Source: Polyangiales bacterium (GTDB lineage Bacteria; Myxococcota_A; Polyangia; Polyangiales; Ga0077539). Taken from it: a stretch of 64,000 bases of DNA. The notes beneath the pieces are model-generated. The model was not told the origin of the DNA, did not search any database, and saw nothing but the letters and a program-made list of their open reading frames with translations. This document shows positions 35,276 through 44,650 of this stretch, in pieces. Position numbers and translations under genes: made by a program. The stretch is taken from NCBI GenBank assembly GCA_044229975.1, contig JBGARZ010000003.1, forward strand, positions 621,809-685,808, given 5' to 3'. Numbering within the stretch: the first letter of the stretch is position 1; the number at the start of each line of letters is the position of its first letter.

Positions 35276-35926
35276 ATGAAGGGTCGCCTTCTCACCCTCA
35301 CCGCGCTCCTCCTGCTCGCCGACGCCGGCTGTCACCGCCGACGCTGGCGTCGCTACCACCACCAACAACACCGCGATGCCGGACCGCCCGACACCGGGCT
35401 CGTGGCAGTCGTCGACGCGGGCCCGCCGCCGTCGTCCATCCCGATGCCACCGGCCACCACGACGGTGTGCGAGACCGACGCCCAGTGTCCCGGTGGCGGC
35501 TATTGCTTCACCGCGGGCATGGAGGCCCAGTACAGCCGGGTGTTTCGCGACTGCCCCGACGGTCGGGCGTGGCGCGCGACGCACGCGCTCAACACCTGCC
35601 TGCGCGCGGGCTGCGAGGCCGACGATCAGTGCCCCGCGGGCCAGCGCTGCGCCGACGTGCAGATGCTGCCGTTTCCGCAGCGGGCGTGTGTCCCGGCGAC
35701 GTGCCGGACGATGTGGGACTGCCGTCGGCAACGCTTCGGTCGCTGCGTGGAGTACGTCTCGGGCGCGCAGTGCACCATCGGCGGCTGGGCGTGCTCGTAT
35801 CCGGGTGATCCGTGCGCGCCGCAGGACCACGCGCGGCTCTGCCCGCCGCGCGCGGGGATGATCGCGCGGTGTGTGCCGCGCAACGGCCGCTTCGGGTGCG
35901 TGTACGAGCCGCCGCCGACGTTCTGA
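35276..35926 (+). CDS. Cys-rich secreted protein or lipoprotein whose 3' end is reiterated downstream
   Basis: Signal peptide + AGC, CETDAQC and CEADDQC modules, ends CVPRNGRFGCVYEPPPTF. Confidence 0.7.
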   Translation: MKGRLLTLTALLLLADAGCHRRRWRRYHHQQHRDAGPPDTGLVAVVDAGPPPSSIPMPPATTTVCETDAQCPGGGYCFTAGMEAQYSRVFRDCPDGRAWRATHALNTCLRAGCEADDQCPAGQRCADVQMLPFPQRACVPATCRTMWDCRRQRFGRCVEYVSGAQCTIGGWACSYPGDPCAPQDHARLCPPRAGMIARCVPRNGRFGCVYEPPPTF

Positions 35927-35949
35927 CCGACGGGCGCTCTGGCGGATGG
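35875..35949 (+). repeat. Dispersed direct repeat, copy 1 (3' end of gene 35276-35926; att-like)
   Basis: GCCGCGCAACGGCCGCTTCGGGTGCGTGTACGAGCCGCCGCCGACGTTCTGACC followed by GACGGGCGCTCTGGCGGATGG. Confidence 0.85.
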
Positions 35950-35972
35950 AACCCCCTCTCAGGCGTCCCGGA

Positions 35973-36677
35973 TCAAAGGGTCGTCTGCGAGGCGCTGGGC
36001 GGGGGCGGGGGCGCGCCGGCCGGCAGCGCGAACTGCACGCCGCTGCCCGGCTGAAACTCCGGCGGGAACGCGATCAGCAAACCAATGCCGGCGCCGAATC
36101 CGATGGCGCCGCCGATGGTCATGCCGAGCGGCCAGCCGTCGAAGCCCGACTCGGCGATGGCCCCGAAGGTCGCGCCCGTCACGAGCGCGCCGATGCCCAG
36201 CGAGACCAGCACCCACGAGGCGAGGCGGACGCCCCCGCGCGAGTTGGCGAGGCCGAGCGCGTGGCGGTAGCCCGTCGGCTGCGGGCCGACCACGACGCTC
36301 GCGGTGCTCGTGCGGTCGGGGTCGACCAGCGACCGGAAGCGCAGGTCGTGGCTGCCCAACGCCAGTGTCGCGGTGCAGGGCGTGCGACAGAGCCCCTGGC
36401 CGATCTCGCCGGGCGTGACCGAGGTGCCGTAGCGGGAGACCGTCACGAGCTGGTAGCTGCCGACGATCTCCGAGACCTCGGCGGGGCCGTCTTGCACCTC
36501 GAGCGCGACCTGCCCGGCGCCGGGCACGGGCGGAGGCGCGGGCGGCATCGGCTGGGTGAGTTGGGCCGAAGGCGTCGCGGGCGGCGCGTACTGGCGCACG
36601 CCGCAGGCGTTGAGGGCGAACAGGGGCAGGACGAGGGTCGTCGTCAGAATCTTCTTCAAGGGTCCCTCCACGGTCAT
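35973..36677 (-). CDS. Putative lipoprotein with C-terminal TMs (PEGA-like CRTPC region)
   Basis: LNAC lipobox, LCRTPC, two C-terminal hydrophobic helices. Confidence 0.65.
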   Translation of the reverse strand: MTVEGPLKKILTTTLVLPLFALNACGVRQYAPPATPSAQLTQPMPPAPPPVPGAGQVALEVQDGPAEVSEIVGSYQLVTVSRYGTSVTPGEIGQGLCRTPCTATLALGSHDLRFRSLVDPDRTSTASVVVGPQPTGYRHALGLANSRGGVRLASWVLVSLGIGALVTGATFGAIAESGFDGWPLGMTIGGAIGFGAGIGLLIAFPPEFQPGSGVQFALPAGAPPPPPSASQTTL

Positions 36678-36997
36678 GGGGTGAGCGCGCGCACCGAGCG
36701 CACGATCACACTCAACTCATATGACAACTCGAACCGCGCTGTCTCAGGCGAAACCCCCGTCAGGGGTTCATCACGGGGCGCGTCGATACGAGCCGCGACG
36801 ACGTTGCTGCCAAGCCGACAGGAGATTCAACGCGGCACCCTCCGAGGCACCGGCGCGCTCGGGGTTATCAAGATCGCCCGGTCTACCTGCTGACGTTCGC
36901 TCGTCCGACCTTCGCCGCCGAGCCTCAGACGGTGGTCGACTTCATGGCCACCAGCCCGCGCAAGAAGCCCGCGACGCCCGCTTGGGGTCGAGCGCCA

Positions 36998-37057
36998 CGC
37001 GCTACGTCTCACGCAACAGCCGCTTCGACTGCGTATACCGACAACCCGCGACCGTTC
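36998..37057 (+). repeat. Dispersed direct repeat, copy 2 (most degenerate)
   Basis: CGCGCTACGTCTCACGCAACAGCCGCTTCGACTGCGTATAC matches copy 1 at 31/41 nt by manual alignment. It translates RYVSRNSRFDCVY versus RCVPRNGRFGCVY. Confidence 0.6.
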
Positions 37058-37114
37058 GAGAGCGCGGGTCAGTTTGAACACAGCGCCCTGCGTCGCCGTG
37101 TACCGTCACAGCCC

Positions 37115-42713: not shown

Positions 42714-42727
42714 CGCGTGACCTCCCG

Positions 42728-44080
42728 TCAGGCTTCCAGCTTGAGCTGTACGAGCAGCGGCCAGTGCCGCGACAGCGATCGCGCGAAGTAGCTGCACTGC
42801 GCCAACGCGTTGACGGCGTCGTCCTCGGGCGACGTGCCGTGCCGCGACGCCGTGGCGTACGCCGTGCGCTGCGCGACGAGCGAGCCCAGCTCCGGGGCCG
42901 CGGCTCCGTCGGCCGTGGCCGTGGTCGGCGTCGCCCGCAGCGCCGCGGCGCGACCGGGCGGCAGCGCGGCGGCGAGCAGGTCGACGACCCGCAGCTCCTG
43001 CACCACCGGCGGCGGCGTCACGAGGTGATGAACAACCGCCAGCCCATCACCCAGGTGACCAGGCAGACGGTCGGCGCCCTGCGGGTGCGCGTGCGGCTTG
43101 ATGGCCTCCCAGTGCATCTGCCGATCTTGCAGATGGATGTCCGCCGGGTTGACGGCGGCGAAGCTGGCGAGGAGACCGTCGTGGCGCTCGGTGGTCACCT
43201 TCCAGAAGTCGTCGCCCAGCACGGTGCCGCACGCGCTCGGTCGGATGAACTCCGCGTCGAACTCCTCCTCCAGCTCGCGCAGCCCCTCCGCCGCGTCGCC
43301 GGGCGCGGAGACGAACAGCAGCGCCGAGTCGGGCATCGGGGCCGTCGGCTCGCGCTCCTCCGGGGTGGCGGCCACGCGCAGCGACTCCCACGGGCGCTCT
43401 GGCGTCGTGAGCCCGAGCGAGGCCACCACGCACACCGGCTCGGCGCGGTAGGCCGGGGCGGAGAAGGTCGCGGCGATGAGCGAGCCGGTCACCCCGGCGG
43501 ACTCCATCACCGGCGCCTCGATCACGTCCGTCTTCTGGAGCGCGAAACCCTTGCCCGACGCGTACAGAAACGCCACCGTGGTCCAGCGGTCGTAGAGGGT
43601 GGCGCCGGTCTTCCGGTCGCGGGGCAGCACCAGCTGCCAGCCGCTACCACCGTCGATGGACTGGAGCTTCGCGAGGATGCGTCGCACCTCGGCCACCCCG
43701 GAGTCCGCGGGCGCGTCTTCGAGCGCGACGTGCGCCGTGGGCCCCGACCCCCGCCGGACAGGCACCTTCTGCACGTTGCGGGTGATGCCTGCCAGCACGA
43801 CGACGTGGACGTCGAGCGACGCGATGAGGTGCGCGTACGCGTCGATGGCAAACTGCGGCCGCACCGTCGGGGTAAACAGTCCGCCGCCCAGCTCGGAGAC
43901 GTGCCAGAAGACCACCCGCGCGGGCGGCTTGGAGCGGACCTCGTCCTGGGCGTCGCGCGGACGGGGTGCGAAGGGACACGGAGCGACCGCGGGGGTGCCG
44001 CGACGTGCGGGCGCATCGGCGGCCGCGAGCAGCGCATCGAGACGCTCGTTGGGCGGAGCGCCGGGCAGGGGAATGGGCAT
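42728..44080 (-). CDS. Degenerate EEP (endonuclease/exonuclease/phosphatase)-fold protein
   Basis: RVVFWHV, DVHVVVLAGI, VAFLY and terminal SRHWPLLVQL map onto EEP WN, D.v.LQE, yaflY and SDH.P. GGGAGGG SD. Confidence 0.5.
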   Translation of the reverse strand: MPIPLPGAPPNERLDALLAAADAPARRGTPAVAPCPFAPRPRDAQDEVRSKPPARVVFWHVSELGGGLFTPTVRPQFAIDAYAHLIASLDVHVVVLAGITRNVQKVPVRRGSGPTAHVALEDAPADSGVAEVRRILAKLQSIDGGSGWQLVLPRDRKTGATLYDRWTTVAFLYASGKGFALQKTDVIEAPVMESAGVTGSLIAATFSAPAYRAEPVCVVASLGLTTPERPWESLRVAATPEEREPTAPMPDSALLFVSAPGDAAEGLRELEEEFDAEFIRPSACGTVLGDDFWKVTTERHDGLLASFAAVNPADIHLQDRQMHWEAIKPHAHPQGADRLPGHLGDGLAVVHHLVTPPPVVQELRVVDLLAAALPPGRAAALRATPTTATADGAAAPELGSLVAQRTAYATASRHGTSPEDDAVNALAQCSYFARSLSRHWPLLVQLKLEA

Positions 44081-44081
44081 C

Positions 44082-44432
44082 TCAGCCCTCCCGGTCGAGG
44101 CGTCGCAGGGCGGCCCGCCAGACCTTGCGGACGCGCAGCGTGGCGTTGGTGATGGTCGGGTCGCGCATGCCCTGGTCGATCCACGCGACGTCGGGTCGCT
44201 GCCAGTCGGCGCCGAAGATCATCGCGAGGTCCATGAGTCGTAGCTGGTCGTCGGTCTGACCGACGCCGTACTCGCCGCAGCGTCGAACGACCTCGGCGAC
44301 GGCGGCCTTGAGCTTCACCGCACCGAGCGCCGAGGCCGCGCCGGCGTGGACGGTCTCGGCGTGCGTGAGCAGGAGCTTGTGACTGACGACCGCGGAGAGG
44401 GTGTGAATCTGCGCGGTTCGAATCTTCAGCAT
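44082..44432 (-). CDS. Small helical protein resembling those associated with DUF4123 T6SS adaptor loci
   Basis: MLKIRTAQ...LG...L...V......YGV...DQLRLMDL..IFGADW....W pattern. Alternative start at 44465. Confidence 0.55.
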   Translation of the reverse strand: MLKIRTAQIHTLSAVVSHKLLLTHAETVHAGAASALGAVKLKAAVAEVVRRCGEYGVGQTDDQLRLMDLAMIFGADWQRPDVAWIDQGMRDPTITNATLRVRKVWRAALRRLDREG

Positions 44433-44586
44433 CGTGGCATCGGGTCCGTCGGTGGGGTGCGGCATCGTAACCGTGCGCGAGAGGACGACGATGGAGGAGC
44501 GCGTTCAACAAATGTTTGGGGGGTAGCGTCTCCGTCGGGTGGCTTCAGCGATGCACACCCCGAGCGCTTCGTCGCCTGCGGCTGGG

Positions 44587-44650
44587 GCCACGCAACGATC
44601 GCTTCGGATGGGTGTACGAGCCGCCGCAGACGTTCTGACCTACGCGCTCT
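44587..44650 (+). repeat. Dispersed direct repeat, copy 4 (right boundary, abutting the stop of the amidotransferase gene)
   Basis: 48/54 nt identical to copy 1 by manual alignment, then TACGCGCTCT. Confidence 0.88.

Follow-up and report, generated by a model that had tools for sequence, protein, structure and literature searches.

How does an array of unrelated genes, set apart by repeats of another gene's end, arise where no integrase is at hand? The question is raised by a 64,000-nucleotide stretch of a Polyangiales bacterium genome (contig JBGARZ010000003.1, positions 621,809 to 685,808; hereafter the window, in whose numbering plain coordinates are given), in which three blocks of cargo genes lie between a gene for a Cys-rich protein behind sdhB, hereafter the host gene, and a convergent yafJ-like gene. 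Four copies of the 3' end of the host gene bound the blocks. The original prediction, made from the sequence alone, described a cassette-like island and proposed an insertion hotspot or cassette array, serviced in trans or by homologous recombination. The feature proves to be real. Rather than a new cassette system, it is a stacked form, without restriction-modification (RM) genes, of a known type of insertion scar. We give about an even chance to the explanation that repeated homology-driven insertion-duplication without an integrase built the locus.

The host gene (35276..35926, + strand) encodes a 216-aa protein, occurs as a single copy and is conserved in the family; its product weakly matches Myxo_Cys_RPT (E 0.0068, under the cut-off). 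Four direct copies of its 3' end (repeat family D1) start at 35866, 36999, 38872 and 44578 and share 60-82% identity over 73 nt. Copy 1 (35873..35949, +) is the functional gene end, with the stop, the last codons of the yafJ-like gene and a 9-nt tail in common with copy 3. The other three are orphans: copy 2 (36998..37065, +) is the most decayed, copy 3 (38879..38953, +) retains the stop and the tail, and copy 4 (44587..44650, +) reaches the stop of the yafJ-like gene. Compared with copy 1 over the 54 nt ending on TGA, copies 2, 3 and 4 are identical at 36/54, 43/54 and 47/54 positions. The four copies, one of them degenerate, were thus correctly described in the original prediction, as was the high similarity of copies 3 and 4, with its values of 44/54 and 48/54 matching a register moved by one base. 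The predicted common tail was found at 35936-35949 and 38940-38953, and the TGA-C-CTA junction at which copy 4 abuts the yafJ-like stop was confirmed. As repeats flanking the blocks, the copies measure 55-78 bp with 60-87% identity, above the 30 bp that defines the direct repeats of the known scars discussed below. Copies 1 and 3 hold the final codons of the yafJ-like gene as well, so what was duplicated is the stretch where both genes meet and not the end of the Cys-rich gene alone; beyond the stop, the repeat continues for 14-23 nt into the end of the yafJ-like gene. The three orphans start at a near-constant left boundary, -51 to -60, and copies 2 and 3 have two substitutions in common.

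The repeat belongs to none of the familiar mobile or structural families. Searched against the 10.0-Mb genome, a profile of the four copies matched nothing else at E <= 1.3e-10 (next match E 0.001), so that the unit is confined to the locus and a REP-like genome-wide repeat is rejected. An attC site or structured RNA is likewise rejected, since neither strand of any of the four copies folds into a hairpin (z-scores +0.14 to +2.3) and no Rfam family matches, and a tRNA att site is rejected because no tRNA lies near the locus; on the attC and tRNA att sites the earlier reading was right. A phage carrying the unit was also rejected, with 0 matches in an exact-pattern search of viral contigs. The claimed lack of an integrase in the island was borne out as well: a six-frame profile search found no recombinase in the 64,000-nt window, and no terminal inverted repeats were found in the three blocks. 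The genome contains 12 tyrosine and 3 serine recombinases, all away from the locus, and several of them adjoin tRNAs. Elsewhere in this genome (G000), an integrase at C4:248120-249070 has an N-terminus that presumably resembles those of integron integrases, and three 173-180 bp repeats with 99-100% identity (C14:37693-48175) lie near open reading frames that we take to resemble IS91-type transposases.

That the blocks were inserted at a junction of two convergent genes, as predicted, is supported by relatives that hold an empty, single-copy site. Labels of homologues suggest that the organism is myxobacterial. The host gene is single-copy in 19/24 family genomes, and in 5/8 same-genus genomes, which represent other species and not strains, it lies directly against the yafJ-like gene with one copy of the end. 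G013, L056 and a contig of run X4, the last from a relative ~89% alike, likewise have an empty site with a single copy. In the X4 contig the two stops stand one base apart, as they do at copy 4, so copy 4 is likely the native junction. Different cargo between copies, which the original prediction named as another supporting sign, was not seen in relatives, where other genes fill the junction without a duplicated end: G003 has 8.6 kb and G002 23.5 kb of other genes there, G004 has the host and yafJ-like genes on separate contigs, and no duplicated end was detected in G002, G003, G004 or L057-L059. Of four metagenome loci, one has the empty site and the other three carry the G002-type neighbour and no copy; no second copy near the host gene was found in 30 family genomes or in these four loci. 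The G002 block (L037-L038, C160:122000-145400, 23.5 kb) contains nuo-like genes and a glycoside-hydrolase-like fragment in common with the G003 fill, as labelled by eye. Fragments 97-100% identical to all three blocks occur at low depth in several other runs, one of them spanning copy 2 without difference, which speaks against an artefact of assembly. Excision joints were not seen in eight runs, whose Logan contigs at depth 2-3 for the organism are too shallow to count against excision.

We surveyed the genome for gene-end duplications using genes from a simple gene caller (7760, of which 7218 were probed). From each gene, 60-nt probes were taken at the start, middle and end and matched against the DNA up to 60 kb away on either side, in direct and inverted orientation, which gives 12 classes. 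Unique non-coding copies in the class of 3' ends repeated directly and downstream amounted to 12 hits at 10 genes, and the other 11 classes gave 0-4 genes each, mostly matches of 33-60 nt with 70-85% identity; an earlier, stricter gapless scan of gene ends had given 3 genes. Sixteen hits passed a scar filter (40-330 nt, at least 85% identity, mostly non-coding partner), from which one on C21 was dropped as likely chance; its retention would not reduce the stop-boundary count given below. The final set comprises 15 hits at 14 genes, 13 of them outside the locus, with orphan 3' ends of 42-241 bp. The inserts span 0.5-35 kb, those of 0.5-1.5 kb bearing 94-98% identical repeats, and hold genes for MqsA, a second Rpn-like protein, an MmeI-type cluster, XisI, Schlafen and PIN proteins as well as ordinary enzymes. 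A bactofilin gene end is a second three-copy site (L074:1060-13144; G000 C19:370060-382142), the first block of which carries an MmeI-type methyltransferase, a DEAD helicase and a T5orf172 gene. No tyrosine or serine recombinase was found in any scar interval, and no integrase was detected in the other inserts, either among the 74/97 predicted proteins scanned or by six-frame profile search. Terminal inverted repeats or common cargo ends were absent, with 1/17 above the 99th percentile of the null. With like scars at 13 further genes that are unrelated to it, the locus is not a dedicated cassette system, and neither a special cassette array nor a site serviced by a recombinase in trans is supported.

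The scars also resemble each other in where they end. Relative to the stop codon, the right boundaries of the 15 hits fall at +1, -12, -10, 0, -2, -2, -4, 0, -9, -6, +4, 0, 0, +14 and +23 (the case at -10 reads +133 from the convergent gene), that is, at or before +5 in 13/15. Left boundaries vary from -43 to -207 in 14 hits and lie at about -250 in one. A null of blind duplication that keeps the gene whole and uses the observed lengths gave at most 8/15 at or before +5 in 20,000 draws, compared with the 13 observed, in a simulation that ignores decay of non-coding tails and aligner trimming. Three orphans differ from their gene in the stop or tail: TAG for TGA, CGA TAG for CGC TGA, and another Ser-initiated tail with its own stop. 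We know of no DNA enzyme that reads a reading frame; a boundary at the stop is therefore best explained by homology with a donor allele or by selection on the att site of an element. The two-allele orphans would fit either a homology or an integrase model and are not easily reconciled with blind copying.

Outside this locus, the C33 scar site is clearly empty in relatives, and for C15, C19, two sites on C23, C34 and C10, relatives have one copy within 1.5 kb, with neighbours different or unseen. Three cases were found in other genera. One is an orphan of feoB in G018, with 100% identity across 148 bp and an end precisely at the TAG, behind a recombinase-free 14-kb insert; the other two are inserts of Uma2 (G018) and of a nuclease (G044). 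Contigs of five relatives (1.7 Mb) together with five shorter loci gave 5 hits of the direct, downstream 3'-end class, 2 of them convincing and both outside the three same-genus contigs. We also observed that a 432-bp self-complementary element with an 11-bp duplication splits the feoB orphan (L182:6408-6838, G018 C5), that the C10 insert (L071:1459-5589; 4 kb, 58% GC, behind a carboxylase-like gene) has at least three long open reading frames missed by the gene caller and defence-like by eye, and that duplications of 71 and 130 bp occur on the 5' side of genes (L087:1631-4245 and L088:1551-19129), one of them upstream of an HhH-GPD (nth-like) gene.

Homologous recombination, one of the routes in the original prediction, is judged likely, and we infer a course of three steps. 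DNA from a related cell would carry the 3' part of the host gene followed by extra genes. This incoming DNA would then recombine with the gene end, through a single crossover if circular or through a homology anchor on one side, so that the newcomer would provide the working end and the old end would be displaced downstream. Once a repeat-flanked block was present, unequal recombination at the repeat could stack more blocks, and the near-constant left boundary at the locus could arise in the same way. Several points weigh against this explanation. Neither an event under way nor a donor was found. The common start of the orphans is simpler under a fixed crossover, and a repeat running 14-23 nt past the stop fits a true target copy. 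The 100% identity at feoB in G018 means that the donor there would be of the same species. Since no Ku gene was found in the genome (93% complete), there is no demonstrated enzyme to join ends into circles. Two cases may be scars of rearrangement or of paralogs, as the C20 insert contains housekeeping-type genes and the C32 hit belongs to a paralog family. The simplifications of the null simulation belong here too. The third-position excess (71/573 vs 37/564 and 32/567) fits decay after copying as well, and the outcome that relatives side with the gene copy at 73 differing sites vs 16 is predicted by decay alone; the codon-position and outgroup tests did not discriminate between the models.

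A plausible but rather unlikely alternative is decayed site-specific accretion, in which integrase-bearing elements repeatedly entered the 3' end of the host gene, restored it in the way that e14 restores icd, and then lost the integrase, as in cis-mobilizable elements (CIMEs), leaving attL, internal att and attR sites. The copies could serve as putative att sites, gene ends supplied by an element would finish at the stop codon, and both the near-constant left boundary and the three-copy bactofilin site fit. Tandem accretion with decayed elements is documented in PMC5704250, and so is the icd/icdC case in PMC13626634. Accretion nevertheless needs ~14 different protein-gene targets with the integrase lost at all of them, including inserts as short as 0.5-1.5 kb whose repeats are still 94-98% identical. 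The cargo ends have nothing in common. A live integrase element did not turn up at the host gene in the small sample of relatives' loci, among the matches listed, or by exact pattern in viral contigs.

We regard it as less probable still that target DNA was duplicated blindly, through staggered cuts 50-200 bp apart made in trans by a nuclease or by a transposase of IS1634 type, with foreign DNA captured and only gene-sparing insertions surviving. The unit does span both gene ends, copies 1 and 3 have cargo bases in common, in many cases the cargo resembles nuclease or defence genes (MmeI-type, Schlafen, XisI, PIN, MqsA), a single IS1634 copy is present in the genome, though broken and on another contig, and double-strand breaks are proposed in Furuta, Abe and Kobayashi 2010 (PMC2853133). 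Yet boundaries gather at the stop and not beyond it, some orphans have allele-like stops, and cargo ends lack inverted repeats. Gene-end repeats bracket 2/3 Rpn-like genes in G000, but such brackets are otherwise rare: a clear one within 1.5 kb was found at 1/~31 scorable Rpn-like loci outside G000 and at 0/~24 XisI loci, and a nearest-flank test found none at the 10 Uma2-like genes in G000. On the same count, the Rpn-like nuclease as driver is poorly supported beyond G000. Least probable, and in our estimate very improbable, is that the junction was duplicated locally and that unrelated insertions or deletions later arose between the copies, so that repeat and cargo would be unlinked. The junction varies without a repeat in G002 and G003, and the two substitutions common to copies 2 and 3, too few to test, hint at copying of orphan from orphan; the genome-wide bias to downstream 3'-end orphans is left unexplained.

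Insertion with long target duplication is said to have been reported originally from Helicobacter pylori by Nobusato in 2000. In Furuta, Abe and Kobayashi 2010 (PMC2853133), it is defined for RM genes as having a long and variable duplication; the repeats often span a start or stop site, and the mechanism is only hypothesised. The locus is like that class in its variable direct repeats longer than 30 bp, inserts below 20 kb, lack of a mobility gene and single copy at the empty site, and the repeat is likewise neither genome-wide nor a tRNA. Unlike that class, the cargo is mostly unrelated to RM, a single site has three stacked events ('tandem' appears 0 times in PMC2853133), ~14 sites occur in one genome, and the repeats finish at the stop, which the repeats of Furuta and colleagues merely span. 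Restriction and modification genes, by which inserts were selected in 2010, are lacking at the locus, and an MmeI-type gene occurs in the C19 insert. Because its cargo has no RM match, the locus has the structure of the class without being an RM unit. Supplementary Figure 7 of PMC2853133 presents further cases, which may include stop-bounded or stacked ones.

Other known systems share some of these features. PMC5704250 and PMC13626634 describe, respectively, site-specific tandem accretion of decayed elements in CIMEs and e14 with icd/icdC, where an orphan C-terminal fragment lies downstream. Tandem integrase-less blocks between att-like copies at a gene 3' end and the downstream orphan fragment are common to these and to our locus, which differs in having many unrelated targets, no common element ends and no related live element or cognate integrase that we could find. 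For type VI secretion system (T6SS) immunity arrays and Rhs orphans of V. cholerae, PMC5361080 proposes homology-facilitated illegitimate recombination; there, too, successive integrase-free insertions use a conserved gene upstream as their anchor, and displaced remnants lie downstream. Those remnants, however, are immunity genes or toxin tips, as opposed to the 55-70 bp dead ends with unrelated cargo found here. In an integron cassette array, or a cluster of attC sites lacking an integrase (CALIN), cargo blocks also lie between short diverged repeats with no integrase nearby, whereas the repeats here copy a coding end and do not fold. IS1634-family elements make long variable duplications, unlike which the unit here has neither terminal inverted repeats nor a transposase. 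PMC2884548 puts repeats at 10-18% of variable segments. No account of such scars in myxobacteria was found in the literature covered, with subscription papers and supplements outside that coverage.

The cargo itself is diverse. The blocks measure 1.05, 1.8 and 5.6 kb, their GC content resembles that of the flanks, and none of their proteins passes the cut-offs of Pfam, NCBIfam or PADLOC. Block 1 encodes a 234-aa lipoprotein-like membrane protein (35973..36677, -) with a lipobox-like LxxC and a 31% paralog on C29; at its right edge lies an orphan fragment of another gene's end (36898..36981, +), 93% identical to G000 C23:91070-91152. Block 2 encodes a lipoprotein-like protein without a family match (37115..37783, +) and a predicted nuclease (37973..38860, +) with C-terminal LAPEQRLAG-type repeats, visible also in its family alignment. 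The nuclease has 642 relatives and a patchy distribution (18/30 family genomes). Its model (pLDDT 85.5) best matches NucS (Z 7.2, rmsd 3.0, 104 aligned), with NucS, McrC and XisH as fold neighbours at middling Z of 5.6-7.2, and Foldseek gave no match at E <= 0.001. A PD-(D/E)XK-type fold is thus predicted, and this domain combined with C-terminal repeats is the architecture of Rpn/YhgA. The label 'Rpn-like' therefore stands as a resemblance in fold and repeats and not as family membership, as no Rpn/YhgA profile of Pfam or NCBIfam matched. Upstream of the nuclease gene lies a C-rich CCGCCACC-type repeat whose tail is conserved (37873-37950); it has ~15 occurrences in the genome and likewise precedes members of the nuclease family in G002, G009 and G044. 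Stretches of ~40 nt at 37810-37850, between the block 2 genes, and at 43240-43280, inside an endonuclease/exonuclease/phosphatase (EEP)-like gene of block 3, are alike.

Block 3 had been called an effector-like operon, a label that was not substantiated. Its first gene (39126..42713, -) encodes a 1195-aa protein of an unnamed family with 210 relatives, many of ~800 aa, present in 1/300 other genomes of the class. A weak nucleotidyltransferase lead (score 0.79) is accompanied by a GG...DxD-like stretch seen by eye, one relative (P0125) ends in a fused UCH domain, and the single-sequence fold was unusable (pLDDT 35.7). The second gene (42728..44080, -) encodes a 450-aa protein predicted to belong to the EEP family (Atlas score 0.94, 171-179 shared features), found in 0/30 family genomes. 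The third (44082..44465, -) encodes a small protein matching no known family. The convergent neighbour (44640..45422, -) encodes a class II glutamine amidotransferase (yafJ-like; PF13230, E 7.8e-108).

This locus cautions that an integrase-free array separated by repeats need not mean a new cassette system. Scars at gene ends that are bounded by the stop are a countable and testable signature, and the ~14 found in this genome, some of them with two alleles, point to recombination with donor DNA over an enzyme that cuts and copies. A broader possibility, which we consider doubtful, is that integrase-free 'gene-end capture' steadily provides myxobacteria with part of their small accessory genes (lone nucleases, toxin-antitoxin and defence genes, lipoproteins), with flanked blocks looping out and re-entering at the same gene end in other cells; the locus would then be a cassette array run by host recombination alone. 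Integrase-free insertion at gene ends is in any case a known, if poorly explained, route of gene gain.

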